Assembly (NCBI GenBank): GCA_965213815.1
Contig: OZ243917.1
Location: 2,345,747-2,409,746, forward strand
From: Alphaproteobacteria bacterium
GTDB taxonomy: Bacteria > Pseudomonadota > Alphaproteobacteria > SP197
DNA length: 64,000 nucleotides
Direction: 5' to 3'
Numbering within the stretch: position 1 is the first letter of the stretch; every line of letters begins with the position of its first letter. The notes under the pieces were generated by a model. It was not told where the DNA came from. It saw nothing but the letters and a program-made list of their open reading frames with translations, and made no database searches. Positions 19,839 through 61,100 of this stretch are shown one piece after another. The translations under genes and the position numbers were made by a program.

Positions 19839-20435
19839 TCACACTCTGGCCACGCCGATCATGCCATCGCGAGTCACGAGGCCGGCAAGCTCTTCACGGG
19901 AGAGTCCGTCGCTCCCTGCGGGACATTGCGGCAGGACCATGTAGCGCAGGTCCGCACTGGAATCCCAGACGCGGATCTCGACATCGTCCGCCACCTCGCA
20001 TCCCATCTCGGCCAGCACGGCCCGCGGCTCGCGCACGACACGGGCCCGGTAGGGCTCGCTCTTGTACCAGCGCGGAGGCAGGCCGAGTACGGGCCACGGA
20101 TAGCACGAACACAGGGTACACACGACCACATTGTGGACCCCGGGCGAGTTCTCGACGACCACCATGCTCTCGCCCTGCATGCCCGATATGCCGAGCCCCG
20201 CCATGGCTTCGGAGGCGTTGGCAAGAAGGCGTTCACGGAAGGCTGCGTCACGCCACGCCTCGGCCACCACCCTGGCGCCGTGGTGCGGGCCAACCCTGGT
20301 CTCGTAGAGCTCGACGAGACGATCGATGGTGTCGGGATCGCAATAGCCCTTGTCCGTCAGCAGTTGCTCAAGGGCGGCGACGCGCAGGGCCATGGCCGAA
20401 GGGGGCTGATGATGATGCTGTGACATCTCCCTCAC
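19839..20435 (-). CDS. nthA: Nitrile hydratase alpha subunit, cobalt-type
   Basis: 198 aa; metal-binding claw [10 protein letters not shown] (Thr/Tyr variant is characteristic of Co-type; Fe-type is VCSLCSCTAW). It lies 10 bp upstream of the beta-subunit gene. Confidence 0.85.
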
Positions 20436-21153
20436 TCAGGGCAGGCTGGATCCGGCGATTATTCCCACCCCGGCCACCCGGCGTCAACCGAAGGGTCTGT
20501 CGGGTAGTGTCCCAATTTCGCTGAAACACCGCCAGGATCCGCGTTTCATGTTCCGGGGTGAGCGCAAGCGCTCACGGATGCTTGACTTACGGGCCTCCCG
20601 CCCGTCCCGGGCTTCGGACCTGGCTTGTTCGGCTTCGGCGCCCGCGCGTCGATGAGGCCGACGATCCATTCCATGTCATGCAGCGTATCGGGGACGCCAG
20701 CCGCCACGGCCGGTGTCATGCGAAGGGTCTTGTGCACCCGCACGAAGTTGTAGTGCAGTGTACGAAGTGGAGCGACATCATGTGCAGATGGTTCTCGATT
20801 TTCTTCGAGAACGCATTGGTGAGCTGAGTGAAGCGGCGCATACCCATGCGCATGGAGAGGTCGCCACGCTCGACGCAGGACTTGCTGATGTGTGCTGGGC
20901 CCGGCCTGCCTTCAACGCATGGCCGCTCCCAAATGCGCACTGGCTTGGTCCAGTTTGCATTGACCCGACCGAGGACACAGCATACATTTGGACTATGACG
21001 AATCTCCAGATCCAATCCGTTCGCAGTCCATTCGACAACCCGAGGCTCGCCTCCGTGGCGATCGAGACACTAACGCGTGCCGATGCGATGGGTCTGCTCT
21101 TGCGTCCCGTCACCTGCCTGGACTATTCCGCAATTCAGGGGCTTGAAACGGGC

Positions 21154-21615
21154 ATGGCCGAAGCCGGTATCGGCCGCAGGTTCCTTGCCGAACTTCACCG
21201 GATGCCTTGCTCCGATGCCGCACGGCTTTCCACACTCCTGGAAAAGATCAACGAGGCCTTCGACCAGTCCCCGGCCCCCGCGCACGAATGGTGCGCCCTG
21301 GAGAGCGTCCTGGGAGTGGAGATGCTGACCCGCCTCCTCGGCATTTCCCGGTCGAGTGCGCGGCGCTACATTTCCGGTGACCGCTCCACCCCGGACGCGA
21401 TCGCCGCCCGGCTCCACTTTCTCGCCTTCGTGGCAGGGGACCTTGGCGGCGCATACAATGATATTGGAGTGCGGCGCTGGTTTGATCGGCCTCGCGAACG
21501 GCTCGGCGGCGATACGCCCTCGCAGGCGCTCGGCGACGCGTGGTCGCCAGAAGAAGATGGCCCGCGAAGGGTCCGGGATCTCGCCCGAGCATTGGCGTCG
21601 TCGCCTGCGACATGA
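21154..21615 (+). CDS. Xre-family antitoxin with DUF2384 (MbcA/ParS-like) toxin-binding domain
   Basis: The C-terminal ~150 aa of ORF 20713..21615 carry an HTH-like segment and a DUF2384-like tail (...ARLHFLAFVAGDLGGAYNDIGVRRWFDRPRERLGGDTPSQAL...). Its stop overlaps the RES-toxin ATG (ATGA). The start is uncertain: ATG 21154 is chosen, 21088 and 20713 are alternatives. Confidence 0.6.
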   Translation: MAEAGIGRRFLAELHRMPCSDAARLSTLLEKINEAFDQSPAPAHEWCALESVLGVEMLTRLLGISRSSARRYISGDRSTPDAIAARLHFLAFVAGDLGGAYNDIGVRRWFDRPRERLGGDTPSQALGDAWSPEEDGPRRVRDLARALASSPAT

Positions 21616-22151
21616 TAGTCTATCGCCATGTTGATCCCCGCTTTCCCTTTCTGCGGGAGGATTCGTCGCAATACGCCGGCCGGTGGAATGCGCCGGGCGA
21701 GCTGACCCACTACTTCTGCGACACGCCGGACGGCGCCTGGGCGGAGTTTCTTCGACACGAGGAGATCCGCGACCCGCAGGATCTCGCCACCGTGCGCCGG
21801 GGCCTCTGGGCGGTCGACATCGGTGAAATCCCGTCGCATCGACCAGACCTGCCTCGCGAAACACTGATCGGTGGACCGGAAACCTGGCCGGCATGCCAGC
21901 AGGCTGCCCGGCGGCATCGCGAACATGCCGATGGTCTCGCCGCGCCTTCGGCGGCGCTGAAGTCCGGCGCGGCTCACGGATACCGAGTGGACGGCGGCCT
22001 CCAACCCGGTCCCGACCGGGACGGACGGGTCATCGCGCTGTTCGGAAGGCGCTCGGACGTCATCGGCTGGGCCGCGACCGTCGACGGCCGTCCCGGCCCG
22101 GAATTGCTGCCGAAGGTCCGGCATTTCCAACCGGACGAGCCCGGCCACTAA
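21612..22151 (+). CDS. RES-domain toxin (NAD+-targeting RES family)
   Basis: 179 aa starting MIVYRHVDPRF...YAGRWN...; spacing of conserved R/E/S/Y positions fits the RES domain. It is translationally coupled to the upstream Xre/DUF2384 gene. Confidence 0.7.
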   Translation: MIVYRHVDPRFPFLREDSSQYAGRWNAPGELTHYFCDTPDGAWAEFLRHEEIRDPQDLATVRRGLWAVDIGEIPSHRPDLPRETLIGGPETWPACQQAARRHREHADGLAAPSAALKSGAAHGYRVDGGLQPGPDRDGRVIALFGRRSDVIGWAATVDGRPGPELLPKVRHFQPDEPGH

Positions 22152-22300
22152 CGCTCACCCGCATTCACGCCGACTGGTCGTTGGTCAGCGCCCTTGAACA
22201 CGACTGCGCCCCTACGACGGGCATGATCTCCACTCAAGGTGCGGCCTCGAGATCGTTGTCGATGCTGTCGCGGAGACCTTCACGGTATCGCGGGCAAGAT

Positions 22301-22314
22301 GGGGGGGGGGGGGG
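22301..22314. repeat. G14 homopolymer tract
   Basis: Read directly: ...gcaagat(g)14aaagcg... It lies in the 336-bp convergent intergenic region between the RES toxin gene and the parC stop. Confidence 0.9.
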
Positions 22315-22487
22315 AAAGCGCCCCTCCACCACCCCAACGGATGAATGCGAGACAATCTGTCCCACTCCCTACGAAACAGTGTGGGATAATCCTGTCGATA
22401 CAATCAGGAATCCAACAGGTTGGAATCCCGACGGAAGGGCCAGGACGAAACATGGATTCTCAACGAGTTGGTGACAATGCAGAGGTC

Positions 22488-24710
22488 TCAACTGAAGCGG
22501 TTGTTCCGCGAAAGACCGGGGGGCGCCGGTTGACCGGCCTGGCCGCGCTTGCCGAGCCATGGTGCAAGGTCTTGCTGTGTCCGCGTGCGGGTGCCCGATT
22601 GCCAGGCAAGACCGGCATCGAGCGCAAAGACAGTCGCATCCGAGAGTCCACCCTCCCGGTAGCGCTGCAGGATGACGCCCGAGCCCCTGGCCTGTTCCGG
22701 CACATCCTGCAACGGGAACACGAGCAACCTGCCGTTCTCGCCAACGACAGCCACGTGGTCTCCCTCGACAACCCTGAGCACCATGGCCTCGTCACCTGCT
22801 GCAGGCGACAACACCTGCTTTCCTCCCCTTTTGCGGGACTCCACGAGATCCTCGCCAACCACAAACCCCTTGCCACCGGAGGACGCCACGAGGAACTTGC
22901 GCCCCCCCTTGAAGACCATCATGGCGGCCACATCGACATCGTTGCCCATGTCGAGCATGAGGCGCAGCGGGTCGCCGAACCCCCTGGCCGCCGGCAGTCC
23001 GTCGCAGGCCAGGGTGAAGAACTTGCCGTCGGTGGCGAGAACCAGCAGCCTGTCAGTCGTCCAAGCATCGAGACGCAACCTCTCGCGATCGCCCTCCTTG
23101 AAGCGCAGATCGCCCACCTGCTCGCCATGGCCCCTGGCGGCGCGGATCCAGCCCTTGTCGGAGAGCACCACCGTGATGGCCTCGCGGTGCACCGTGGCGT
23201 CGACCGGGATGGCGTCCACCGGCGGCGGGCTGCCGAAAGCGGTGCGCCGCCTGCCCAATGCGCTCTCCTCCCCGAACTGCCGGGAGATGTCCGCAAACTC
23301 GGCCTTCAGCGCCTTCTTCTGCCTGCTGTCGGAGTCCAGAAGGCGCCGCAGGTCGTCCGACTCCGCGGTCAGCTCTGCCATCTCGTCGGCAATTCTCATC
23401 TCCTCGAGACGGCGCAGTGAACGCAGGCGCATGTTGAGTATGGCCTCCGTCTGTACATCGCTGAGAGAAAAGCGCCGGGCCAGCGCCGCGGCCGGGTCGT
23501 CCTCGTCGCGGATGATGCGGATCACCTCGTCGAGATTGAGATAGACAACACGATGCCCCTCAAGGATCTCCAGGCGGCGGTCTATGGCGGCAAGACGGTT
23601 GCGCGACCGGCGCACCAGAACGGTGCGCCGGTGATCGATGAAGGCGTTCAGCACGCCGTTGAGATCCATGACCCTGGGGATGCCGGAGGCATCGAGCACG
23701 TTCATGTTGAGCGAGAAACGCGATTCCAGGTCCGTGACGCGAAACAGGGACTCCATGAGGATGGTGGGATCCACGGAACGGTTCTTCGGCTGCAGCACGA
23801 GACGGATGTCTTCGGTCGATTCGTCGCTCACGCCCTCGAGCAACGGCAGTTTGCGGGCCTCGACGAGTTCGGCAATGCGTTCGACCAGGCGCGATTTCTG
23901 GACCTGGAACGGCATCTCGGTGACGACGATCCGCCAGGTGCCCCGGGCCTGTTTCTCGATGTTCCAGCGCGCCCTGATGCGAAACGATCCTCTCCCCGTT
24001 TCGTAGGCCGCGCGGATGGTGGCGGGATCGTCGATGAGTTCGCCACCGGTGGGAAAATCCGGCCCCTTCACGATGGCCACAAGATCGCCAACCGGGGCGC
24101 GGGGCGTCTCCACAAGGTGGATCAGCGCCGCGCACAGTTCCGCGACGTTGTGCGGCGGGATACTCGTCGCCATGCCCACGGCAATGCCGCTGGCGCCGTT
24201 GGCCAGAAGATTGGGGAAGCGCGATGGCAGCACCACCGGTTCCGATTCCGAGCCGTCGTAGGTGTCGCGAAAATCGACGACATCGTCGTCGAGTCCGTCG
24301 AGCAGGGCCACCGCCACCGCGGTCAGGCGCGCCTCGGTGTAGCGCATGGCCGCGGCATTGTCGCCATCGACATTGCCGAAGTTGCCCTGGCCGTCGACCA
24401 GCGGGTAGCGCGCCGCAAAGTCCTGGGCGAGACGCACGAGAGCGTCGTAAATGGCCTGATCGCCATGGGGGTGGTACTTGCCGATGACGTCGCCCACCAC
24501 GCGCGCCGACTTCTTGAACCCCTCCTTAGGGTCGAGGCGAAGCTGCCGCATGGCATAGAGAATCCGGCGATGGACCGGTTTGAGACCATCCCTCACGTCC
24601 GGCAACGAACGCGACGTGATGGTCGACATCGCGTAGGCAAGATAGCGTTGCGTGAGCGCATCGGCCAGACCGACGGTCTCGATGACGCCGTCATGTACAC
24701 TCTCGGTCAT
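22488..24710 (-). CDS. parC: DNA topoisomerase IV subunit A
   Basis: 740 aa; N-terminal type-IIA topoisomerase A-subunit core (...[21 protein letters not shown]..., ...GKYHPHGD..., catalytic-Tyr region [10 protein letters not shown]). The length is of the ParC class (about 750 aa) rather than GyrA (about 850-900 aa). Confidence 0.75.
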
Positions 24711-45039: not shown

Positions 45040-46140
45040 TCACCACCGCAAGGTGATCTGCAGCCCGAAGGTGTGCTGCGGTGCCGTATACTCGCTTTCC
45101 CTGCGTGTCAGGGTCACGCCGACCGAAAGGTCGAGCGCCTCGCTCTCCGGCGTCAGCCGCCACCCCAGCGTGTAGTCGCGCTCGTCCCTGGCAAGGCCGA
45201 ATCCCAGGTGCGGACTGCCGATATACTGACCCTCAAGGAGCGCCATGCCCCACGCGGCCTCCACCTGCCAGCGACTTTCCGTCTCCGCGCCTGAACGGGC
45301 CTCCAGCACCTCCGGCGCAAGCAGGCGGTCAAGCCCGCCCGTCGCCGCACCGCCCGTCTCCTGGCGCAAGGCAAGCGACAGTCCAAGTTCGGAGGCCGGA
45401 TCCGGATCGAAAGCCACTGAAGCCGCATAGCCCCGGTCCTCGAAGTCGTCCGCGGCGTGGCTGATCAGGGTGCGGCCCGAGAGATCGAGACTGAGCCCCA
45501 GACCGGGATCACTCCAGACAATGCCGCCGCCAACCTCCACCCCGGAGCCGGTCTCGGCATCGCCGCCGTCATGGCGCGCACCCACCTCGACCCTGGGCGT
45601 CACACTGCCGTCACCTTCCAGGGCGACCTTCCAGCTCCCCTCCAGACCGAGCCGCAGGCGTGTCACATCGGACTGCGATGCAACAAGCCCTTGCGTCCTG
45701 TCTGACTCTGTCCGCGCCCACAGGGCGTCGGTCGTCAACGCCAGGGCAGGCCCGCTCTCCGGGGCAATCACGTCGCCACGCGCCGCCAGCGCCGCCATGG
45801 TCCAGGAGATGTCCGCCTCCATCTCCTTGCCCTCGCCGGGCTTGAGCGTGACGTCTCCCGTGCCGTGGCCCAGGGCACCCCACACCTTCAACCGCTCCGA
45901 GGCCTGCAATGCCGCATAGGGAACCGCCGCCGTCAGCGACGCCTCCACCGTGCCGCCGTCCTCCTCGTCAGTGCCGGCATAGGCACCCTCGCCGGCACTC
46001 TGCAGCAGCGCCAGACCGACGAGCCACGGACCCCGGGCATAGTCGCCCCCCAGCATGGCCGTCGTGGTCTCGCCAGCAAGCGACAACGACCCTTCCCTGC
46101 CGTCGAAGTCCGAGCGTGCTCCCCGGCCCCACAAGGCAAG
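45040..46140 (-). other. Autotransporter-like beta-barrel translocator domain of the giant protein
   Basis: The segment from ...GGSLALWGRGARSDFDGREGSLSLAGETTTAMLGGDYARGPWLVGLAL... to the terminal ...GLQITLRW shows amphipathic beta-strand periodicity, a terminal aromatic residue, and a WGRG...S...DGD-like opening typical of autotransporter beta-domains. Confidence 0.6.
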
Positions 46141-49100
46141 ACTGCCGCCTCGTGAATCGCTCTCCCCTGTCACCGCGAAGCTGCTGGCAAGCATCACCTC
46201 GCGCATGGTCATGCCTTGAGACTGCGTCCCGGACACATCATCACTCCAGGCATCAGGGCCCGCCGCCAGAGTGGCCGGAGGACTCTGCCCCCCAGTGCCA
46301 AGGCTGAACGCCTGCCCGGCAAGCGTGCCCTCGACACCCGCCGTGCGAGGCGCCGCCATGCGCCCGGCAATGCCGTCGAGTGCCGCTTCAGCCACCGCGC
46401 GTCCGAAGCGCGCCAGCCATGCCGCCGGCATCGGATCCGAATTGATGATGGTGCCCGTCGCCAGTTCGTCCACGATGATGGCGCCCTCTGCCTCGGTCAG
46501 CACGACGGTGAGGGTCTCGCGGCCCTCGTCGTGGAAGTCATCGAAGGTCTCGACCCAGAATTCCCCTCGAGTCGACCCCGGGTAAACGGTCACCCGGCTG
46601 TCGGCGTAGCGGAAATCCGCGTGGGGGATCGCCTCCCCGTAGCTCGGCCCGTGGCCGTTTTCGTCGTCGTGGTAGTTCGCCCCAAATCGGGTCTCCCAGT
46701 AAACGACTACCTCGTGGTCCACCGCATGGGAGAGCGTGAACGTGAAATGCAAATCGTCGCCCTCCGCCGCCTCGACATCGTCAATATGGATCGTCGGCAA
46801 GGACGGCACTTCGTCGTCGGCCACCGCGACGGTGGCGCTGGCATCTGTCGCGTGCGGGGTGTAGCCGGTTCCCGGTTCGACGATAATGGTGAGGCTGCCG
46901 TCGTCTTCAAGCGTCGAGTCGTCGACGGTCGGGATGTCAACGGTGACGGTGGCGTCCGTGCCGAGCGTCACGGGCCGCGCACCGAGCTCTCCGTCCCCGG
47001 CGAAGGCGCCGCTTTGCGTCACGCGCAGGTTCACGGTGATGTCCTGCGAAGGGGCCGGGGCGCCTGTCAGCGTGAAGCGCGCAACGCCCCCTTCGGTGAT
47101 ATCGGCACCGCCGGTGATGCGCACGACGGTCGCCCGAGCGTCATCGTCACCGTCGTTGTCGGCCACCGCCACTGTCGCCGTGGACGGGCTGGCGACCCGG
47201 TAGCCGGTTCCGGCCTCCAGCGTCGCCGACACGCCGCCATTCGCCTCGTCGAGATCGTCATCCGTTGTCGCGAGCGTGTAGGTGGCCGTGTCGCTCCCCG
47301 CGGCGATCGTGACCGTCTTCGATCCCTCCTCGCCATCCGTCAGAAAGTCGCTCACCGCGTCGTCTGCAATGGCCAGCGCGATCTCGAGGTCCGACGCCGG
47401 CGCCGGACTTGCCTGGACGGTGAACACGGCGTCGCCGCCTTCGGTGATGTCGCCGCCGGCCGCAATCGTAATCTCGGGATCGGGGTCGGGGGTGTCGCCT
47501 ATGATCGTGACCCTCGTGTAACACAGGGCGGTCGAGGTGCAATGGGCCGCGGCGGCGTTGAATGGGTAGCTCTTCACGCCGGGGAAACCGCGATCCGGGT
47601 TGCCGAGCCACTGGAGGCTGTCCCAGCTGGCAGTGAAGGTTTTGCCCACGGAACCCTTGCACAACTCGATTTCCAGTTCGATCGTGTCGGTATTGATGTC
47701 CTCGGCGATGCGCACCAGGGGTCCGGTTCTCACCATCCCCTCGGGGTAGGAGGGCCAGTGGCCCCAATCGACCACATCCGTTCCAGGTTCCCTGCAATCG
47801 CCCCCACCCTGGGCCGTGCCGGGGCCCCAATCGAAATAGAAGGCCACATCAATACCGTGGCCTTTCAGACCCGCCGGCACGGGCATCAGGATCCGGCTTT
47901 TTCTGCCGGCATACACCGCCGTGGCCGTCTCAGGTGGCGTGATCCCGCTCACGCGCTCCCGGATCGTGACGACGGCCGTGTCAGGCTCGCCGAGGGTCAC
48001 GGTGCCCGGTAGTTCGGATGCCCGGATTGCCAGCTTGAAGGTCTCATTGGGGTCATTCTGGTTGTCGCGTGTGGTCGGAATGTGCGCCTTCCCGCTCGTT
48101 GTGCCCGCCCGGATCGTGACCGTCTGCACGCCACCAACGTAGTCCGCGCCGGGTGTCGCGCTGTAGCCGCCCGGGCTGGTCGCCTCCAACTCAATCATCG
48201 TATCGGCAGCAGGGGCCTCGGACAGGTTGACCGTCACCGAGAGCGAATCGCCCTCCAGCACCTCGTAGCGCGATGTCGAGAGCGAGACCGTGCCCGCCGG
48301 CCCCGACGCGTCATTGTCGACGATGGTGACCGTGGCCGGGGTAATGGTCAGCGCGCCGAAGGTTCCGGTGACCTCGATCATCTCATCCTCCTCGTGCAGG
48401 GCGTCGTCGGTGGGTGTCAGATCGAATGTGCCGGTCTCGCTGGCATCGCCCGCAGCGATGGTGATGTCGAAATTCGACACCGCGCCGTAATCCGTGCCCG
48501 ATATCGCCGTGCCCCCGCCCACGCTCACCGTCACCGTCTTCGCGTCCACGTAGCGCGTCGTGCCGTTCACGGCGGCCGTCACCGTGATTTGGGTCAATCC
48601 ATCGCCCTCGCCCAGCGTGGCGGGCGACACCGAGAGCGTGATGCCGGTGGGCGGCGCGTCATCGTCGGTGATGGTGAGGGTCTGGTTGTCCGGGTTGGTG
48701 ACGCCCCCGCCGCTGGCGGTGGCCGAGACCGTCACACTCTTGTTCGGCGCGTCCACGTTGTTGTTAACCGCGGTGATCTTCACAGTGCCGGTGCTGGTGG
48801 TCGCACCCGCCGCGATCGTCAGCGTCTTGTTGTTGCTCACCGTGAAATCGCCCGCGACCGTGTTGGCCCCCGCCGCCGCGGCCACCGTCAGGGTCACCGC
48901 CGTGTTGGACTTCCCCGAGAGCATCGCCGTCACCGCGCTCGCGTTCGTCGCGCCGCTCTCATTGATGGTGGTTGGCCTCAACACCAGGGTCACGGTGGGC
49001 GTGCCCTCGTCATCCGTAATGGTGAGTGTCTGATTAGCCGGGTTCGTCACCCCGCCGCCCGACGCCGCGCCCGACACCACGACCGACGCATTCGCCGCAT

Positions 49101-52100
49101 CCACGTCATTGTCCACCGCCGTGATCGTCACCGTGCCGGTGCTGGCCTTCGAGCCCGCCGTGATCGTCAGCGTCTTGTTGGCGCTCAACGTGACCGGGGC
49201 AGTGTTCGGCACCGAGACCTCCACCGTCACCGCCGCACTCGACTCGCCCGACAGCGTTGCCGTCACCGTGCTGGCGTTGCCATTCCCGCTCTCGTTAATC
49301 GTGCCTGGCGTCAACACCAGGGTCACGGTGGGCGTGCCCTCGTCGTCCGTGAGGGTGATGGCTGTCCCGGTGACGGTGACGCCGGTGAGCGTGCCTTCTA
49401 TGCTGATGCTCTCAACGGGCTCGTCTATATCGTCGTCGGCGGGCGTGAGCGTGAAATCCACATAGCCGCTCGACGCCCCTGCGTTGATCGTGATGCTCTT
49501 GCTCGTCACTTCCGTGTAGTCCGTCCCCTCCGTCGCGCCGTCGGCGTCCGGACCCACCTCCACCGTCACCGTCTTGGCCTCGGCGAAGGTCGAGCTGCCG
49601 CCCAGCGTGGCCGTCACCCGCACCATCTTCGCACCGCCATCCTCGGCCAGGGAGGTCTGGGTTCCCATCGTGCCCGTGTCCGCATCCACCGACAGCGTCA
49701 GTGCCGTCGGCACCGCGTCGTCGTCGGTGATCGTGCCGGTGGCCTCGGCATCGCCGATGATGGCGCCGACCGGCTCGGTCAGCTCCACCAGGAAGGTCTC
49801 GTTGCCCTCATGCAGCGTGTCCTCGGTGGTGGCGACCGTGAAGGTCTGGCTGCTCGCGCCGCTGGCGAAATCCAGCTTCGTCGCCGTGGTCATCGCGGTG
49901 TAGTCGGTGGTAGCCGCCGCGCCCGCCCCGGTGGCCGCCTTGGTGTTCCACTTCACCGACACCGCGTTGTCCATGGCACCGCTGCGGGTCACCGTGAAGG
50001 TGATCGTATCGCCCTCATCGGCGCTCGCGTCGGCTACGGCAAATGACGGCTGGCCGTCGTCGTCCGTCAGAGTGAGCGAGGCGTCCGTCACCGTCACGCC
50101 CGTCACCGTCCCGTCCAGACCGATCGTCTCGTTGCCCTCGTGCAGATCGTCCTGCGTCGGCGTCAGGTCGAAGGTGCCCGCTTTGCTTGCATCGCCCGCG
50201 GCGATGGTGATGTCGAAGTTGGCCACCGCGTCGTAGTCCGTGTCCGATGTCGCCGTGCCGCCGCCGACGCTCACTGTGACCGTCTTCGCGTCCACGTAAC
50301 GCGTCGTGCCGTTCACCGTGGCGGTCACCGTGATCTCGGTCTCGCCGGCCCCCTCCCCGACCGTGGCCGGCGACACCGTCAGCGTGATGCCGCTGGGCGT
50401 CGCATCGTCGTCGGTCAGGGTCAGCGAGGTGTCCGTCACCGTCACGCCGGTCAACGTGCCGTCCAGGCTGATCGTCTCGGCGCCCTCGTGCAGCACGTCG
50501 TTGGTCGGCGTGAGGGTGAAATCGTGCGTGACGCTGGCGACTCCAGCGCCGATGGTGATGGTCCGGTCGGCGACGGTTGTGTAGTCGGCGCCTTCCACGG
50601 CGCTGTCACCGTCCTTGCCGACGGCGAGGGTGAGATCCGCGGCCTCCTCGAGGCGGGTGGTCCCATCTAGCGTGGCGGTGACGCGCACGGTCTTGCCGCC
50701 ACCATCCTCGGCGAGGGATGTCTGGACGTTGTCGGTGTCCTTGTCGGCATCGACGGTGAGCGTGATCGCCGGCGCGGCGTCCTCGCTGGTCAGCGTGATG
50801 GTGTCACCGCTGACGGTGACGCCGGCGAGGGCGCCTTCGAGGGAGATGGTCTCGTTCGCCTCGTGGAAGGCATCGTCGGTGGGCGTGATAGTGAAGGTGT
50901 GGGAGGCGCTTTGCGCGTTGGCGCCGATGGTGATGGTCTGGTCGGCGACATCCGTGTAGTCGGTGCCCTCGGTGGCGCTGTCGGCGTCGGCGTCGCCAAC
51001 GATGAGCGTGAGGTCCGTGCTCTTGTCGAAGCGGGTGGCGCCGGAGAGGGTCGCGGTGACGGTAACTGAGGTGGCCCCGGCGTTTTCGGCGAGGGTGTCC
51101 TGGTCGCCCTGCATCGTGCTGTTGGTGTCCACGGTGAGCGTGACGGCCGCGGCAGCATCGTCGCTGGTCAGAGAGATGGAGGCGCCGGCGACGGTGAGCC
51201 GGGCGACGGTGGCGTCGAAGGAGATGGTCTCGCTGGCCTCGTGGAAGGTGTCGTCGGTGGGCGTTAGAGTGAAGGTGTGCTCGACGTCCTGGTCGCCGGC
51301 GGGGATGGTGAGAGTGACGTCGGCGACGTCGGTGTAGTCCGTGCCTTCGGTGGCGCTGTCGGTGTTCTTGCCGACGATCAGCGTGAGGTCCTTGTCTTCG
51401 TCGAACTGGGTCGAGCCGCCGAGCGTGGCGGTGACGCGCACGGTCTTGGCCCCGCCGTTTTCCGCCAGCGAGGACTGAACGTTGTCGGTACCATCGTCGG
51501 CATCGACGGTCAGCGTGAGGGTGGTCGGCGCGGCGTCGTTGTCGGTGATGGATAGCGAGCCGTCGCTGACGGTGAGCCCGGCGAGGCTGCCGTCGAGCGA
51601 GATGGTCTCGCTGGCCTCGTGCCGGGTGTCGTCGGTGGGCGTCAGCGTGAACTCCACGTAGCCGCTTGCGGCGCCCGCATTGATCGGAATGCTCTTGCTC
51701 GTGACCTCCCTGTAGTCGGTGCTCTCCGTGGCGCTGTCGGCATCCGCGCCCACCTCCAACGTCACCGTCTTGGCTTCGACAAACCTCGTCTCGCCAGTGA
51801 TGGTTGCAGTAACCCGGACCGTCTTGGCGCCACCGTTCTCCGCGATGGTTGTCTGCGTGCCGTCCGTGCCCGTGTCCGCGTCCACCGAAATCGTGATTGC
51901 GCCGGGCGCGGCGTCATCGTCGGTGATGGTGACCGTGGTTGGGGTGATGGTCAGACTGCCGGACGTGCCCGCTACGTTGATCGTCTCGTTCGCCTCAGAG
52001 AGGACATCGTTGATGGGCGTCAGGTCGAACGTGCCGGCTTTGCTCGCATCGCTCGCGGCGATGGTGATGTCGAAGTTGTCCACCGCGTCGTAGTCCGTGC

Positions 52101-55100
52101 CCGATATCGCCGTGCCGCCGCCCACGCTCACCGTCACGGTCTTGGCGTCCGCGTAGCGCGTGGTGCCGTTTACGGTGGCCGTCACGGTGATTTCGGTCTC
52201 GCTGTCCTCCTCGCCTACCGCAGTGGGCGACACCGAAAGCGTGATGCCGGAGGGCGCGGCGTCGTCGTCGGTGATGGTCAGGGTCTGACTGGCCGGGTTG
52301 GCGACGTCCCTGCCGCTGGCGGTGGCCGAGACCGTCACCGTCTTGTTCGGGGCGTCCACGTCATTGTCCACCGCCGTGATCGTCACCGCGCCGGTACTGG
52401 CCTTCGAGCCCGCCGCGATGGTCAGGGTGGTGTTGCCACTCAACGTGACCGGGGCATCGTTCGGCACCGAGACCGTCACCGTCACCGCGGCGCTGGACTC
52501 GCCCGACAGCATTGCCGTCACCGTGCTGGCGTTGTCATCCCCGCTCTCGTCGATGGTGGTTGGCGTCAACACCAGCGTCACCGTGGGCGTGCCCTCGTCG
52601 TCCGTGATAGTGAGGGTCTGGTCGGCCGGGTTAGCAACGCCGCCGCCGCTGGCGGTGGCCGAAACCGTCACGCTCTTGTTCGGCGCGTCCACGTCATTGT
52701 CCACCGCCGTGATCGTCACCGCGCCGGCGCTGGTGGTCGCACCCGCCGCGATGGTCAGAGTCGTGGTGGCGCTCAACGTGAAATCGGCCGCAGCGGTGTT
52801 GGCGCCTGCCGCCGTTGCCACCGTCAGGGTCACCGCCGCGTTGGACTTGCCCGACAGCGTCGCCTTCACCGTGCTCGAGTTCGTCGCGCCGCTCTCGCTG
52901 ATAGAGGCTGGCGTCAGCACCAGGGTGGCCGTCGGGACGCCCTCGTCGTCGTTGATCGTCAGGGTCTGATTGTCCGGGTTGGCGACGCCTCCGCCGCTGG
53001 CGACGGCGGAAACCGTCACACTCTTGTTCGGCGCGTCAATGTCATTGTCCACCGCAGTGATCGTTACCGTGCCGGCGCTGGTGGTCACACCCGCCGCAAT
53101 CGTCAGGGTCTTGTTGGTGGTCACCGTGAAATCGCTCGCGACCGTGTCCGCGCCCGCCGCCGCGGCCACCGTCAGGGTCACCGCAACGCTCGACTTGCCC
53201 GACAACGTCGCCGTCACTGTGCTGGCGTTGCCATTCCCGCTCTCGTTGATGGCGGTTGGCGTCAGCACCAGGGTGACCGTCGGCGTAGTTTCATCGTCCG
53301 TGAGGGTGATGGCCGTGCCGGTGACGATGATGCCGGTCAGCGTGCCTTCAATGCTGATGCCCTCACTGGGCTCGTCTATGTCGTCGTCGGTAGGCGTGAG
53401 CGTGAAATCCACATAGCCGCTCAAGGAGCCCGCATCGATCGTGATGCTCTTGCTCGTGACCTCCGTGTAGTCCGTGCCCTCCGTCGCGCCGTCGGCGTCC
53501 GGACCCACCTCCACCGTCACCGTCTTGGCCTCGGTGAAGGTCGAGCTGCCGCCCAGCGTGGCCGTCACCCGCACCATCTTCGCACCGCCATCCTCGGCCA
53601 GGGAGGTCTGGGTTCCCATCGTGCCCGTGTCCGCATCCACCGACAGCGTCAGTGCCGTCGGCACCGCGTCGTCGTCGGTGATGGTGCCGGTGGCTTCGGC
53701 ATCGCTGATAATGCCGCCGACCGGCTCGGTCAGCTCCACCAGGAAGGTCTCGTCGCCCTCGTGCAGGGTGTCCTCGGTGGTGGCGACCGTGAAGGTCCGG
53801 CTGCTCGCGCCCTTGGCGAAATCCAGCTTCGTCGCCGTGGTCATCGCGGTGTAGTCGGTGGTAGCCGCCGCGCCCGCCCCGGTGGCCGCCTTGGTGTTCC
53901 ACTTCACCGACACCGCGTTGTCCATGGCACCGCTGCGGGTCACCGTGAAGGTGATCGTATCGCCCTCATCGGCGCTCGCGTCGGCTACGGCAAATGACGG
54001 CTGGCCGTCGTCGTCGGTGAGCGAGATCTCGGCTTTGGTGATTGTGAGCGCGCCCGAGGTGCCGGTGACGTCAATCGTCTCGCTGCCCTCGTGCAGATCG
54101 TCGTCGGTGGGCGTCAGGTCGAACGTGCCGGCCTTGCTCGCATCGCCCGCGGCGATGATGATGTCGAAGTTCGACACGGCGTCGTAGTCCGTGCCCGATA
54201 TCGCCGTGCCGCCACCGACGCTCACCGTCACCGTCTTCGCGTCCACGTAACGCGTGCTGCCATTCACCGTGGCGGTCACCGTGATCTCGGTCTCGCCGGC
54301 CCCCTCGCCCACCGTGGCCGGTGACACCGTCAGCGTGATGCCGCCGGGCGCCGCGTCATCGTCCGTCAGCGTGATCGTGGCGTCCGTCACCGTCACGCCG
54401 GTCAGCGTCCCGTCCAGGCTGATCGTCTCGCTGCCCTCATGCAGCACGTCCTGCATCGGCGTCAGCGTGAAATCGTGTGTGACGCTGGCGACTCCGGCGC
54501 CAATGGTGATGGTCCGGTCGGCGACGGTTGTGTAGTCGGTGCCTTCCACAGCGCTGTCGCCGTCCTTGCCGACGGCCAGCGTGAGGTCCGCGGCCTCTTC
54601 AAGGCGGGTGGTTCCATCGAGAGTCGCAGTAACGCGCACAGTCTTCACACCGCCGTCCTCGGCGAGGGATGTCTGCACGTTGCCGGTGTCCTTGTCGGCA
54701 TCGACAGTGAGTGTGATCGCCGGTGCGGCATCGTCGCTGGTCAGCGTGATACTGGCGCCGGTCACGACAACGCTGGCGAGAGTGACGTCGAAGGAGATCG
54801 TCTCGCTCGCCTCGTTGAAGGCGTCGTCGGTGGGCGTGAGCATGAAGGTGTGCTCAACGTCCTGGTCGCCGGCGGGGATGGTGAGGGTGACGTCGGCGAC
54901 GTTCGTGTAGTCCGTGCCTTCGGTGGCGCTGTCATCGTCGTCGCCGACGATTAGCGTCAAGGTCTTGTCTTCGTCGAACTGGGTCGAGCCGCCGAGCGTG
55001 GCGGTCACCTTGACGGTCTTCGCGCCGCCATTCTCGGCAAGCGAAGACTGGACGTTCTCGGCGTCGTCATCGGCGTCAACCGCGAGCGTGAGTGTTGTCG

Positions 55101-58100
55101 GAGCCGCGTCGTTATCGGTGAGCGAGAGGGAAACGTTGATGACAGTAACGCCGTCAAGGGCGCCCTCGAAGCTGATGGTTTCGCTGGTTTCGTGTCGGGT
55201 GTCGTCGATAGGCGTGAGCGTGAACTCCACATAGCCGCTCGACGCCCCAGCATTGATCGTGATGCTCTGTGTGCCCACATTGGTATAGTCCGTCCCCTCC
55301 GTGGCGCTGTCGGCGTCCGCGCCCACTTCCACTGTTACCGTCTTGGCCTCGGTGAAGGTTGAACTACCGCTCAGTGTCGCCGTCACTCGTACCGTCTTGG
55401 CGCCGCCGCCCTCCGCCAGCGAGGTCTGCACACCGTTCGTGTTCGTGTCCGCATCCACCGACAGCGTCAGTGCCGTCGGCGCCCCGTCGTCATCCGTCAG
55501 CGTGATCGTGGCGTCCGTCACCGTCACGCCGGTCAGCGTGCCGTCCAGGCTGATCGTCTCACTCCCCTCGTGCAGCGTGTCCTGCATCGGCGTCAGCGGG
55601 AAGTCCACGTACCCGCTTGAGGAGCCCGCATTGATCGTGATGCTCTGTGTGCCGACATTGGCATAGTCCGTCCCCTCCGTGGCGCTGTCGGCGTCCGCGC
55701 CCACTTCCACTGTTACCGTCTTGGCCTCGGTGAAGGTCGAGTTACCGCCCAGGGTCGCCGTAACCCGCACCGTCTTGACGCCGCCGTCCTCGGCAATGGT
55801 TGTCTGCGTGCCGTCCGTGCTGGTGTCCGCATCCACCGACAGCGTCAGTGCCGTCGGCACCGCGTCGTCGTCGGTGATCGTGCCGGTGGCCTCGGCATCG
55901 CCGATGATGGCGCCGACCGGCTCGGTCAGCTCCACCAGGAAGGTCTCGTTGCCCTCATGCAGCGTGTCCTCGGTGGTGGCGACCGTGAAGGTCTGAGTCT
56001 CCACGCCCTTGGCGAAATCCAGCTTCGTCGCCGTGGTCATCGCGGTGTAGTCGGTGGTAGCCGCCGCGCCCGCCCCGGTGGCCGCCTTGGTGTTCCACTT
56101 CACCGACACCGCGTTGTCCATGGCACCGCTGCGGGTCACCGTGAAGGTGATCGTATCGCCCTCCGACGCGCTGGCGTCGGCCACGGCAAACGAAGGCTCG
56201 GTGTCGTCGTTCTTGATCGTGCCGATGGCCGTGCCCTTGCCCGTCTCAATGCTTACCCCGGTGCCCGGATCGTCCTCCCCAAGCGCCGGCGCGCTCAAGA
56301 CCGCCCGGAACGTCTCGTCCGGCTCGAACAGGTCGTCCTGCGTCGTCTGCACCTCCACCGTCTGGCTGGTGACGCCCTTGGCAAAGTTCAACGTCTGCGC
56401 CGCGGCGATGGCGGTGTAGTCGTCCGTGCCGGCGGCTTTGACGCCGTCACCACTATCCGCCGCCGTCGCGATCTTCACCTCCGCCACGTTGTCTTCGGCC
56501 CCGGCGCGGCTCACGGTGAAGGTCACCTTGCCGCCCTCGGTGGCCTCCGCATCGGCAATCGAGAAGCTCACCGGGGCGTCGGTGTCGGTGAGGGTCACCA
56601 TCGCGCCGGTGATCGTGATGTCGGTGAGCGTGCCCGTCACGTCGATCGTCTCGTTGGCCTCGTCCAGGTCGTCGTCCACCGGCGTCACGGTGAAGCTGCC
56701 GGTCTGGCTGGCCGCGCCCGCGGCAATGGTGATGTTGAAGCCGCTCACCGCCGCATAGTCGGCGGGTGACGCCGCGGTGTCGTCCGCCACGCTCACCGCC
56801 ACGGTCTTGGCGTCCACGTAGCGCGTGGTGCCGTTCACCGTCGCCGTCACCGTCACCACCGTCGCCCCGGCATCCTCCGCCACCGTGCTCGGCGTGCCCG
56901 AGGTCGAACCGTTCGTGTCCACGGTCAACGTGATGCCGGTGGGAGCCGCATCGTCGTCGTTGATCGTGCCGGTGGCCTCGGCATCGCTGATGATGGCGCC
57001 GACCGGTTCGGTCAGCTCCACCAGGAAGGTCTCGTTGCCCTCATGCAGCGTGTCCTCGGTGGTGGCGACCGTGAAGGTCTGGCTGCCCACGCCCTTGGCG
57101 AAATCCAGCTTCGTCGCCGTGGTCATCGCGGTGTAGTCGGTGGTCGAGGCCGCACCCGCCCCGGTGGCCGCCTTGGTGTTCCACTTCACCGACACCGCGT
57201 TGTCCATGGCGCCGCTGCGGGTCACCGTGAAGGTGATCGCATCGCCCTCCGCCGCGCTGGCGTCCGCCACCGCGAACGAGGGCTGCGCATCGTCGTCGGT
57301 GAGCGTGAGCGAAGTGTCCGTCACCGTCACGCCGGTCAGCGTCCCGTCCAGGCTGATCGTTTCGCTGCCCTCGTACAGGTCGTCGTTGGTGGGCGTGAGC
57401 GTGAAATCATCTGTGACGCTGGCGACCCCGGCGCCGATGGTGATGGTCCGGTCGGCGACGTTGGCGTAGTCGGTGCCTTCCACAGCGCTGTCGCTGTTCT
57501 TGCCGACGGCCAGCGTGAGATCCGCGGCCTCCTCGAGGCGGGTGGTGCCGTCCAGCGTCGCGGTCACCCGCACGGTCTTCACGCCGCCGTCCTCGGCCAG
57601 GGATGTCTGGATGTTGTCGGTGTCCTTGTCGGCGTCAACTGTCAGCGTGATGGCCGGCGCGGCGTCCTCGCTGGTCAGCGTGATGCTGGCGCCGGTGACG
57701 ATGACGCTGGCGAGGGTCGCGTCGAAGGAGATGGTCTCGTTGTCCTCGCGGAAAGCGTCGTCGGTGGGCGTGAGGGTGAAGATGTGCTCAACGTCCTGGT
57801 CGCCGGCGGGGATGGTGAGGGTGACGTCGGCGACGTTCGTGTAGTCCGTGCCTTCGTTGGCGCTGTCATCGTCGTCGCCGACGATCAGCGTCAAGGTCTT
57901 GTCAACGTCGAACTGGGTCGAGCCGCCGAGCGTGACGGTTACCTTGACGGTCTTCGCGCCGCCGTTCTCGGCGAGCGAGGACTGGACGTTCTCAGCGTTG
58001 TTATCGGCATCGACGGCGAGCGTGAGGGTGGTCGGGGCCGCGTCGTCGTTGGTGATGGTGCCGGTGGCCTCGGCATCGGCAATCGTGGCACCGACCGGCT

Positions 58101-61100
58101 CGGTCAGCTCTATCAGGAAGGTCTCATCGGCCTCGTTCAGCGTGTCCTCGGTGGTGGCGACCGTAAACGTCTGAGTGCCCACGCCCTTGGCGAAATCCAG
58201 CTTCGTCGCCGTGGTCATCTCGGTGTAGTCGCTGGTCGAAGCCGCGCCCGCCCCGCTCGCCGCCTTGGTGTTCCACTTCACCGACACCGCGTTGTCCATC
58301 GCCCCGCTGCGAGTCACCGTGAAGGTGATCGCATCGCCCTCCGACGCGCTCGCATCGGCCACCGCAAACGACGGTTGAGCGTCGTCGTCTTCAAGGGTGA
58401 TCGAAGCCTTGGTGATGGTGAGCGTGCCGGAGACGCCGGTCACGTCAATCGTCTCGCTGCCCTCGTGCAGGTCGTCGTCGGTGGGCGTCAGGTCGAACGT
58501 GCCGGTGTGGCTGGCGGCGCCCGCGGCGATGGTGATGTCGAAGTTGGCCACCGCGTCGTAGTCCGTGTCCGATGTCGCCGTGCCGCCGCCGACGCTCACT
58601 GTCACCGTCTTCGCGTCCACGTAACGCGTCGTGCCGTTCACCGTGGCGGTCACCGTGATCTCGGTCTCGCCGTCCCCCTCCCCGACCGTGGCCGGCGACA
58701 CCGTCAGCGTGATGCCACTCGGCGCGGCGTCATCGTCGGTGATGGTGCCGGTGGCCTGGGCCGTGGCGATCGTGGCGCCAACCGCCCCGGTCAGCTCCAC
58801 CAGGAAGGTCTCGTCGTCCTCGTCCAGCACATCCTCGGTGGTGGCGACCGTGAAGGTCTGGCTGCTTGCGCCCTTGGCGAAGGTCAGCGTCCGCGCCGTC
58901 GTTACCGGCGTGTAGTCGCTGGGAAATGCCGCGTTCGCCTCAGCGCCGGAGTCCGAGCTGGTGTTCCACTTCACCGACACCACGTTGTCCATGGCCCCGC
59001 TGCGGGTCACCGTGAAGGTGATGGCGTCGCCCTCCGACGCGCTGGCGTCCGCCACCGCGAACGACGGCTGGGTGTCGTCGTTCTTGATCGTGCCGATGGC
59101 CGTGCCCTTGCCCGTCTCAATGCTCACCCCGGTGCCCGGGTCCCCGTCGCCCAGCGCCGGGGCGCTCAGCACCGCCCGGAACGTCTCGTCCGGCTCGAAC
59201 AGGTCGTCTTGCGTGGTCTGCACCTCGACCGTCTGGCTGGTGGTCCCGGCGGTAAAGTTCAACGTCTGCGCCGCGGCGATGGCGGTGTAGTCGTCCGCGT
59301 CGGCGGCATTGACGCCGTCGCCCGAGTCCGCCGTAGTCGCAATCTTCACCTCCGCCACGTTGTCCTCAGCCCCGGCGCGGCTCACCGTGAAAGTGACCTT
59401 GCCGCCCTCGGTGGCCTCGGCATCGGCAATCGAGAAACTCACCGGGGCGTCGGTGTCGGTCAGCGTTACCGTCGCGGCGGTGATCGTGATGTCGGTGAGT
59501 GTGCCCGTGACATCGATCGTCTCGTTGGCCTCGTCGAGGTCGTCGTCCACCGGCGTTACAGTGAAACTGCCGGTGTGGCTGGCGGCACCCGCGGCAATCG
59601 TGATGTTGAAGCCGCTCACCGCCGCATAGTCCGCCGGGGAGGCGGCTGTGCCGTCCGCTACGCTCACCGTCACGGTCTTGGCGTCCACGTAGCGCGTGGT
59701 GCCGTTCACCGTGGCCGTGACCGTGACCACCGTGGCCCCGGCGTCCTCGGCCACCGTGCTCGGCGTGCCGTCCTCGGCGCCGTTGGTGTCCACGCTCAGC
59801 GTGATGCCGCTCGGCGCCGCGTCATCGTCCGTGATGGTGATGGTGGCGTCGGTAAACGTGATGTTGGCCTGCGTGCCATGCACGCTGATGGTCTCGTTCG
59901 GCTCGTCGAGCACATCGGAGGTGGGCGTGAGGGTAAAGTCCACGTAACCACTGGCGGCACCCCCGTCAATCGTGATGGTGAGGGTGCCGACCTCGGTGTA
60001 GTCCGTGTCTTCCGTGGCGGAGTCCGCCGACTTGCCTACTTCGAATGTGACCGCCTGGTTGGCCGAAAAGCGCGTGGCGCTGGTGATGGTCGCGGTAACC
60101 CGTACCGTGGTGGCCCCGGCTTCCTCGCCCACACTGGTCGGCGTGCCGTTCCCGCCAGCGTTGGTGTCCACGGTCAGGGTAATGAATTCCGGCGCAGCGT
60201 CATCGTCGTTGATCGTGATTGTGGCCGGGGTGAAGGTAACGCCGGTCAGCTCGCCATCGACGCTTATGGTCTCATTCGTTTCGTCAAGGACGTCCTGTGT
60301 GGGAGCGAGGGAAAAGTCCACATAGGCGCTTGTCGCGCCAGCGGGGATATTGATGTTCTGGTCCGCCACCAGTGCGTAGTCCGTGCCTTCCGCGGCGGAG
60401 TCCCCGTCCTTGCCCACCTTCACCTTGACCGTTTGCTCGGTGGCAAAGCGCGTGGCGCTGGTGATGGTCGCGATGACTCGCACCGTGGTGGCCGCGGCCC
60501 CCTCGGCCAACGTGGTCGGTGTGCCGTCCCCTCCGGCGTTGGTGTCCACCGACAGCGTAATCGCGCTGGGCGCCGCGTCATCATCCGTGATGGTGATGGA
60601 GGAATTGGTGAACGTGACGCCGGTGAGCGTGCCGTCCACGCTGATGGTCTCGCTGCCCTCGAACAGCACGTCGGTGGTGGGCGTGAGCATGAACTCCACG
60701 TAGGCGCTGGCCGCGCCGATGGGAATTTCGATGCTCTGCTGGTCCACCGTGGCGTAGTCCGTGCCTTCCGTGGCGGAGTCTCCGTCCTTGCCCACCGTTA
60801 CCGTGACCGTCTGCGCGGTGGCAAAGCGCGTGGTGCCGTTGATGGTGGCAGTGACCCGCACCGTCTTGACGCCGCCTTCTTCGGCAATGCTGCTCTGCAC
60901 GTTGTTCGTGCCGGTGTCCGCATCCACCGACAGGGTGATCGCGCCGGGCGCGGCGTCGTCGTCCGTGATGGTGATGGCGGTATTGGTGAACGTGACGTCG
61001 GTGAGCGTTCCCTCCACGCTGATGGTTTCGCTTCCCTCGGACAGCACGTCGGTGGTGGGCGTGAGCGGGAAGTCCACGTAGGCGCTGGCCGCGCCGATGG

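Follow-up and report, generated by a model that had tools for sequence, protein, structure and literature searches.

The subject of this analysis is a two-gene locus in a window of 64,000 nucleotides (nt) from an alphaproteobacterial genome (GenBank assembly GCA_965213815.1, contig OZ243917.1, positions 2,345,747 to 2,409,746; the coordinates below count from the first nucleotide of this window). Positions 20932-22229 very probably represent a horizontally mobile RES-Xre type II toxin-antitoxin (TA) cassette, which lies in a decayed mobile-element insertion between the promoter of the nitrile hydratase genes and parC. The conserved unit, about 1.3 kb on the + strand, is composed of a promoter, an antitoxin gene of 206 amino acids (aa; 20995-21615), a RES-domain toxin gene of 179 aa (21612-22151) and a short 3′ flank, and its limits are those of the maximal DNA homology to any related locus. 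In the list of open reading frames (ORFs), the antitoxin gene is part of a 300-codon frame that runs on the + strand from a GTG at 20713 to 21615. The first-pass annotation of this DNA considered this frame too long for its antitoxin, which is borne out by homologues of about 206 aa. It also placed the pair correctly, between cobalt-type nitrile hydratase alpha and beta genes on one side and parC on the other.

The start of the antitoxin gene is indicated by several independent observations. A search with the whole 300-aa ORF product returned 501 relatives, almost all of them exactly 206 aa long and covering the last 69% of the query. The aligned homologues begin with MTNL(H/Q)IQSVRSPFDDPRL, an N-terminus also read as MTNL(H/Q)IQSVRSPFDDP, which corresponds to the ATG at 20995 in the window, not to the GTG at 20713 and not to a start near 21154, as proposed in the first-pass annotation. 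An exhaustive profile search extended the family to 807 clusters at 50% identity (284 of them at E <= 1e-30), mostly of 200-215 aa and matched over their full length. The names carried by these proteins are solely "hypothetical" or "uncharacterized protein (DUF2384 family)". Among 63 ungapped homologous genes, codons 1-53 (20995-21153) diverge by 0.205, 0.14 and 0.46 at the three codon positions, a pattern indistinguishable from that of the remaining gene. The GC content at third codon positions (GC3), a check that had been suggested for the upstream segment, divides this segment in two: it is 0.70 in 20995-21153, 0.74 further downstream and 0.70-0.75 in the real genes at the locus, but only 0.50 in 20713-20994. 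No homologue aligns with 20713-20994, either in searches with the 300-aa ORF or in the family alignments, and no Pfam or NCBIfam match falls there. The antitoxin is therefore predicted to be a 206-aa protein starting at ATG 20995, and 20713-20994 (+ strand) to be a spurious 5′ extension. Since the homologues start at 20995, the public annotation of the same gene (P0001, 275 aa, 100% identical, starting at ATG 20788), which exceeds the family consensus by 69 codons, is likewise over-extended. In relatives, gene callers also give antitoxin versions of 153 aa (from an internal Met), 174 aa, 212 aa and more. Two family members, P0032 and P0094, may be natural domain-shuffling variants: the former (364 aa) is a long-form antitoxin with a second HTH_17 plus Xre_MbcA_ParS_C module fused at its C-terminus, and in the latter (277 aa) residues ~48-110 are duplicated internally.

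The toxin gene is recognized more directly. Its product matches the Pfam RES domain (PF08808) with 32.2 bits against a gathering cut-off of 23.2, and all 15 sampled relatives match the same domain (best E 6e-10). At least 95% of 71 family sequences retain R24, E45 and S113, as well as R10 and Y34. With the RES toxin of Pseudomonas putida, an alignment is obtained over the stretch GRW...AEFLRHE, which covers the R and E region; the equivalence of S113 to the serine of the RES motif is based on the APSAAL motif and on spacing only. The ATG of the RES gene overlaps the stop codon of the antitoxin gene as ACATGA at 21612, just as described in the first-pass annotation. A stop-start overlap of this kind is present in 70 of 70 intact relatives (ACGTGA in 40, ACATGA in 29 and ACTTGA in one), and 77 of 80 loci have a RES gene after the antitoxin gene, truncated or frameshifted in about 6 of them. 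The locus thus has a RES domain, the R-E-S polar residues and an antitoxin gene immediately upstream with overlap, as is typical, at the sequence level, of RES-Xre systems. The earlier proposal of a RES-type toxin with an overlapping upstream antitoxin of the Xre/MbcA class agrees with these results, the class of the antitoxin being supported by its fold and its family.

For the antitoxin, the class assignment depends on structure prediction and on the family as a whole. The sub-threshold matches of the window protein (Xre_MbcA_ParS_C, HTH_3 and Xre_ParS) all fall in the last ~150 residues of the 300-aa ORF product, and 25 of 87 family members match PF09722 and 15 of 87 match PF20432 at E <= 0.01. 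The label "Xre(DUF2384)" given earlier is therefore justified at the fold and family levels, but sub-threshold by sequence in the window protein itself. An initial AlphaFold model, computed from a shallow alignment, was poor (predicted local distance difference test (pLDDT) 67.7); with a diverse alignment of 87 sequences, a second model was obtained that shows one compact fold with a pLDDT of 95.1 and a predicted template modelling score (pTM) of 0.91. In a Foldseek search of PDB with this second model, the top 11 matches are all RES-system antitoxins, the Xre protein of P. putida among them. Only ~100-120 residues, corresponding to the C-terminal half, are covered by these matches. The antitoxin is thus predicted to have the fold of the solved RES-system antitoxins, with a core at residues 95-206 (21277-21612, + strand) that combines an Xre-like helix-turn-helix (HTH) and a C-terminal toxin-binding region of the MbcA/ParS/NatR class.

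Residues 1-94 (20995-21276, + strand) form a family-specific N-terminal domain, made up of four helices with a small beta bridge; in the model it shares a single globule with the rest of the protein. Its motifs RADAMGLL, TCLD, GMAEAGIG and SPAPAHEW are strongly conserved, and the first three, which lie between the ATGs at 20995 and 21154, are among the most conserved of the family. This domain is absent from canonical antitoxins and is the one real departure from the characterized systems. The first-pass annotation had considered a novel N-terminal domain of 147 aa; just 53 of these 147 disputed codons are coding, and together with the next ~41 residues they make up the conserved domain of ~94 aa. 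No Pfam match was found in this region in any of the 87 members, and a profile search with the domain alone gave only fragments of the same family rather than other protein architectures. An origin by internal duplication of the HTH half was also considered and rejected, as no similarity to the C-terminal half was seen (hhalign probability 1%). Speculatively, the domain most likely adds a surface for oligomerization or toxin contact. Neither of the two proteins matches PADLOC-DB models at E <= 0.01. In summary, the pair is assigned to the known RES-Xre type II TA systems (COG5654-COG5642), with a distinct, uncharacterized long-antitoxin architecture.

The bounds of the cassette were derived from a blastn comparison of window positions 20400-22600 with 80 related genomic loci. 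The DNA matches extend to 20932 at the leftmost and 22229 at the rightmost, and the homology between loci ends 45-63 nt before the antitoxin ATG. This short upstream stretch includes a promoter-like site, TTGACC-17 nt-TACATT (20960-20988, + strand), detected by a consensus scan that gave 3 promoter-like sites in the region against 0.4 expected. The position of this site relative to the start is conserved among relatives: 32 of 72 loci have an exact TTGAC-N16-18-TAnnnT whose end lies 4-9 nt upstream of the start codon, and 64 of 73 match TTGAC in four or more of its five bases. It appears to be a conserved sigma-70-like promoter of the form TTGACC-17-TAnATT. Six nucleotides separate the end of the -10 element from ATG 20995 in the window. 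Transcription would then be expected to start at the A of the start codon, and the antitoxin mRNA is probably leaderless or nearly so. This is consistent with start-codon usage: the antitoxin begins with ATG in 68 of 72 relatives, whereas the coupled RES gene has mixed GTG, ATG and TTG starts. No operator was identified at the promoter. One candidate, the 5-6 bp inverted repeat GGTCCA...TGGACC that brackets the promoter in the closest clade, was discarded because it is not conserved family-wide. No Rfam match was found in 20300-22600. Downstream of the RES stop, by ~20-45 nt, close relatives (L007-L068) carry a perfect 7-bp hairpin, GCCGACT-N8-AGTCGGC, of which the window copy (22170-22195) is degenerate; it may be a recombination site or else a terminator lacking a T-run.

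What lies further upstream is the remnant of a mobile element. Two minus-strand ORFs (20716-21015 and 20778-21113) had been noticed in the first-pass annotation; both exist, but their nature had been missed. In tblastn searches, residues 189-241 of an IS1 family transposase from Hoeflea (293 aa) match 20916-20758 with 62% identity, and residues 236-279 match 20770-20639 in another frame with 73% identity (joint E 6e-32). Features annotated as "IS1 family transposase" in plasmids match with 69% identity (E 9e-37, tblastn), and a database blastn match shows 71% identity over 20631-20892. GC3 in the two frames of the remnant itself is coding-like, 0.79 and 0.73. The two minus-strand ORFs are thus identified, by tblastn alone, since they match nothing in Pfam or NCBIfam, as two frames of a single frameshifted and 5′-truncated pseudogene of an IS1-family transposase (20546-20916, - strand). 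It retains the last ~105 codons, with one frameshift near 20758-20770, and ends at a stop codon at 20546, taken from the ORF list. The N-terminal ~188 codons are gone, and no other piece of them was found within the window by tblastn. Compared with an intact IS1-family insertion sequence (IS), which has a full-length transposase with N-terminal DNA-binding and DDE catalytic regions and inverted repeats, the likeness is confined to the C-terminal third of the transposase (62-73% aa identity, residues ~189-293 only): what is left is a frameshifted remnant of ~370 bp, in which neither the N-terminal and catalytic part nor flanking terminal inverted repeats were found. A local nucleotide alignment with the Hoeflea IS, seeking the end of the element, gave no match at the settings used.

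The "440 bp of unclear status" of the first-pass annotation can now be divided. It consists of the minus-strand IS1 pseudogene, a 78-bp stretch with the junction and the promoter (20917-20994) and the true 5′ end of the 206-aa antitoxin gene; only 20713-20994 is non-coding in the disputed frame, and 20995-21153 is conserved antitoxin coding sequence. Codons 1-94 of the 300-codon ORF are a frame open by chance, antisense to the IS1 pseudogene and across the promoter. The lower GC content of the segment is real (57.8% in 20713-21153 against 64.8% for the window), but the dip is modest and no outlier, as comparable 200-nt dips occur nearby. Moreover, 71 of 72 relatives likewise have a lower GC content in the first 53 codons than in the remaining gene (0.60 against 0.66), which makes the lower GC there a property of the encoded domain and not a scar. 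The suggestion of an acquisition scar therefore holds for the part of the segment that is IS1 remnant, and not for 20995-21153, where the base composition is a family trait and no sign of foreign DNA. The stop codon of the remnant lies ~60 bp from a promoter-like site just upstream of nitrile hydratase alpha, TTGACG-18-AATAAT (20487-20458, - strand), which with 10 of 12 matches is the best in the region.

A second remnant is present on the other side of the pair. Positions 22234-22302 (- strand, converging on the RES gene) hold 69 nt, ~23 codons with a 13-nt deletion, from the 3′ end of a tyrosine site-specific integrase gene, which is cut off at a G14 homopolymer tract (22301-22314 on the + strand, read directly from the sequence). 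The remnant reads HLARDTVKVSA / DSIDNDLEAAP*, and its 22-mer at 22248-22269 (- strand) recurs unchanged directly before the cassette in L008, L015 and L058, where it is the end of a gene reading ...GKLLGHTQVQTTARYAHLARD...DSIDNDL..*. In plasmids, tblastn finds "site-specific integrase" for the gene end ...GKLLGHTQVQTTARYAHLARD...DSIDNDL*. The antitoxin gene of at least 7 loci is preceded, at a distance of 65-100 nt and in the same orientation, by the 3′ end of a tyrosine integrase gene or gene fragment, on the opposite side of the cassette from the remnant in the window. An integrase 3′ end is a frequent neighbor of the cassette, in either orientation. Taken together, the interval 20490-22487, from the promoter-like site of the nitrile hydratase genes to the parC stop, looks like a decayed mobile-element insertion with the TA pair as its sole intact content.

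The neighborhoods differ at every locus examined and include IS5, IS6 and IS66 transposases, two ABC-transporter operons and amino-acid metabolism genes. These neighbors were sampled from called genes; an alternative choice, the largest flanking ORF, was dropped because it picked spurious high-GC ORFs. None of the 80 loci shares the nitrile hydratase genes or the IS1 remnant in blastn, and no third gene or conserved element is found upstream of about -63 among the loci compared, the homology stopping 45-63 nt before the ATG; the extra small gene envisaged in the first-pass annotation thus has no conserved counterpart. All this suggests that the cassette is a compact, horizontally mobile TA unit of two genes. 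An integron-cassette reading of the 3′ flank was tried and rejected, as inspection of the alignment revealed no R''/R' core sites, and no tRNA gene is present in the window as a possible attachment site. A parC homologue (47% identity) occurs ~3 kb upstream of the cassette in the gammaproteobacterial loci L041 and L069 (positions 7-1077, - strand), on the opposite side compared with the window, and this is probably a coincidence.

The 80 best genomic relatives all come from metagenome-assembled genomes (MAGs), many of them on multi-megabase, chromosome-level contigs. According to the record titles, 38 belong to Alphaproteobacteria, 24 to Gammaproteobacteria, 8 to Binatia, 4 to Thermodesulfobacteriota/Syntrophobacterales, 4 to Acidimicrobiia and 1 to Spirochaetia, which places the cassette in MAGs of at least five phyla. 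The antitoxins are up to 95% identical between an alphaproteobacterial and a gammaproteobacterial genome, and 83.5% identical between Binatia and Thermodesulfobacteriota; in 12 of 70 cases the nearest neighbor is from another class. Searches of 72,556 plasmids, 50,697 phage records and IMG/VR gave no relative. Several names point to marine sponge microbiomes (Candidatus Poriferisodalis, Poriferihabitaceae, and the bin prefixes RHO1, CAR2, COS4 and SB06xx), and judging from these taxon and bin names the hosts are apparently marine sponge symbionts. TA enrichment and lateral transfer among symbionts have been reported for those sponge species (PMC8163846). One MAG, jk18x9bins.50, has two copies of the cassette on separate contigs (L013 and L021).

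Three other readings of the upstream segment have to be weighed against the 206-aa model. One of them takes the extended frame, of 300 aa (GTG 20713) or 275 aa (ATG 20788), as the actual antitoxin gene, with a new N-terminal domain of ~150 aa. The frame is indeed open, it has the public 275-aa record P0001, and extended ORFs are called in a few close relatives (P0002, P0004). However, the extension is conserved in no homologue, the extensions of the relatives are mutually unrelated save for translated promoter DNA, the DNA homology ends at 20932, and the supposed coding region contains the conserved promoter; given also that 20713-20994 has a GC3 of 0.50 and is antisense to an IS1 remnant whose own strand is coding-like, this reading is extremely improbable. 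There is also very little chance that the antitoxin is the canonical-size form of 153 aa from ATG 21154, the boundary preferred in the first-pass annotation, with non-coding leader or regulatory DNA upstream. An in-frame ATG exists at 21154, the product would be close in size to the P. putida Xre (149 aa), versions of 153 aa are called in relatives (P0316-P0322), and GC is lower upstream of 21154, but the last point applies to codons 1-53 in 71 of 72 relatives. Rather than nothing conserved upstream of 21154, there are 53 conserved codons, which include RADAMGLL and TCLD, show coding-type substitutions and contribute to residues 1-94, which share one compact fold with the rest; the promoter, too, precedes 20995 and not 21154. 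Finally, a three-component system with an additional small gene or non-coding RNA in 20713-21150 is barely credible: three-component TA systems are known and short ORFs are present on both strands, but those on the minus strand are two frames of one IS1 pseudogene, no conserved small ORF or RNA is seen in 80 loci, where nothing upstream of about -63 is common and the neighbors always differ, and Rfam gives no match.

Some observations do weigh against the cassette as we describe it. The antitoxin of the window stays below the cut-offs of Pfam Xre_MbcA_ParS_C (15.3 bits against 24.5) and NCBIfam Xre_ParS (19.1 against 90), the family profile has no significant match to solved antitoxins among PDB sequences, and the RES protein shows little similarity to RES toxins of known structure (E 0.007, P. 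putida) and does not reach the NCBIfam ParT subfamily model (15.9 bits against 110). The RES gene is decayed in several relatives, so the toxin is not always maintained, and an extra internal start at 21154 is conceivable, given the 153-aa versions from some gene callers. With the same gene model, the pair could also have another role, either as a ParT-like ADP-ribosyltransferase acting on a protein target or as a domesticated regulator-enzyme or defense module rather than an addiction module. RES toxins comprise both NAD+ phosphorylases/NADases and the mono-ADP-ribosyltransferases ParT/PrsT (PMC12204516), a persistence module encoded in the core genome has a precedent in NatRT (PMC11535050), the RES protein of the cassette differs strongly from every solved one, and the extra antitoxin domain could be a sensor. 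We consider such a role unlikely, though well worth keeping in view, because nothing positive indicates a protein target, the toxin scores far below the ParT subfamily cut-off, PADLOC gives no match, and the scattered IS- and integrase-linked contexts with frequent decay are more in keeping with a selfish cassette than with a domesticated one. A more elaborate proposal is quite doubtful: that the N-terminal domain serves as a sensor, or binds a trigger, and couples RES release to a cue such as a phage product, a host signal or a metabolite, and that the cassette is a defense or persistence device spreading preferentially among co-resident marine-sponge symbionts across phyla.

For the preferred reading, a selfish two-gene TA cassette, a mechanism may be proposed by analogy with the solved systems MbcTA (PMC6436930), NatRT (PMC11535050) and P. 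putida Xre-RES (PMC12204516). The RES protein would consume NAD+ by phosphorolysis or hydrolysis; ADP-ribosylation of a target seems less likely. The conserved C-terminus of the antitoxin (...RDLARALASSPAT), forming a C-terminal helix, would plug the active-site cleft of the toxin, and the HTH of the toxin-antitoxin complex would repress the promoter. Translation of the RES toxin is coupled to that of the antitoxin through the ACATGA overlap.

The comparison with individual systems shows both parallels and differences. MbcT-MbcA of Mycobacterium tuberculosis (Rv1989c-Rv1990c; PMC6436930; PDB 6fkg) has the same order, with the antitoxin gene first and the RES toxin second, and the R...Y...E...S pattern of MbcT is kept here as R24, Y34, E45 and S113; the spacings of 10 (R-Y) and 11 (Y-E) would compare with those of R47-Y58-E69 in MbcT. 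MbcA, however, has 113 aa against 206 aa here, with ~94 extra N-terminal residues and no significant sequence match, and the NAD+ phosphorylase activity of MbcT is only putative for the RES protein here. NatR-NatT of Pseudomonas aeruginosa (PMC11535050; PDB 8qnl) is a core-genome module, in contrast to the scattered, IS- and integrase-linked cassette described here; NatT carries a "Flap" insertion (PMC11535050), and NatR, with ~127 aa, is without the N-terminal domain found here. Xre-RES of P. putida (PDB 6gw6, 9r35; PMC12204516) has the sole solved RES toxin detectable by sequence (E 0.007, GRW...E.L.H). Its autoregulation at a promoter-operator is the model expected here, where no operator palindrome was identified; its Xre is shorter (149 aa), and the promoter here abuts the start codon of a probably leaderless mRNA. 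With ParS-ParT/PrsA-PrsT of Sphingobium and Sinorhizobium (NCBIfam NF049845/NF049844), the pair shares the general RES-Xre architecture, but it is not a member of that subfamily, as indicated by the two NCBIfam scores given above. For the ADP-ribosyltransferase activity of ParT, there is no indication in the present pair.

The 206-aa model defines a sizeable and as yet unnamed family of long-form antitoxins, whose N-terminal domain has no Pfam or PDB counterpart, and makes the public 275-aa, the naive 300-aa and the canonical-size 153-aa models all wrong. The locus is also a clean example of a TA unit of ~1.3 kb outlasting the decaying IS1 element and integrase around it. Repeated moves between classes and phyla of apparent sponge symbionts fit the reports of TA enrichment and lateral transfer (PMC8163846). 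The current understanding of RES-Xre systems is not overturned; the specialist interest lies in the extra domain and the probable leaderless expression, with the cross-phylum spread in symbiont MAGs as a further point.

Two minor observations concern other parts of the window. Downstream of the parC stop, a stretch of 55% GC contains the imperfect palindrome GGAATCCAACAGGTTGGAATCC (22400-22440, + strand), possibly the parC terminator. At 45040-63999 (- strand), a giant ORF of at least 6319 aa runs to the window edge; two sampled pieces of 1300 aa contain Calx-beta repeats and a LapA domain, and the product looks like an adhesin or a large repetitive surface protein, a type common in host-associated bacteria.

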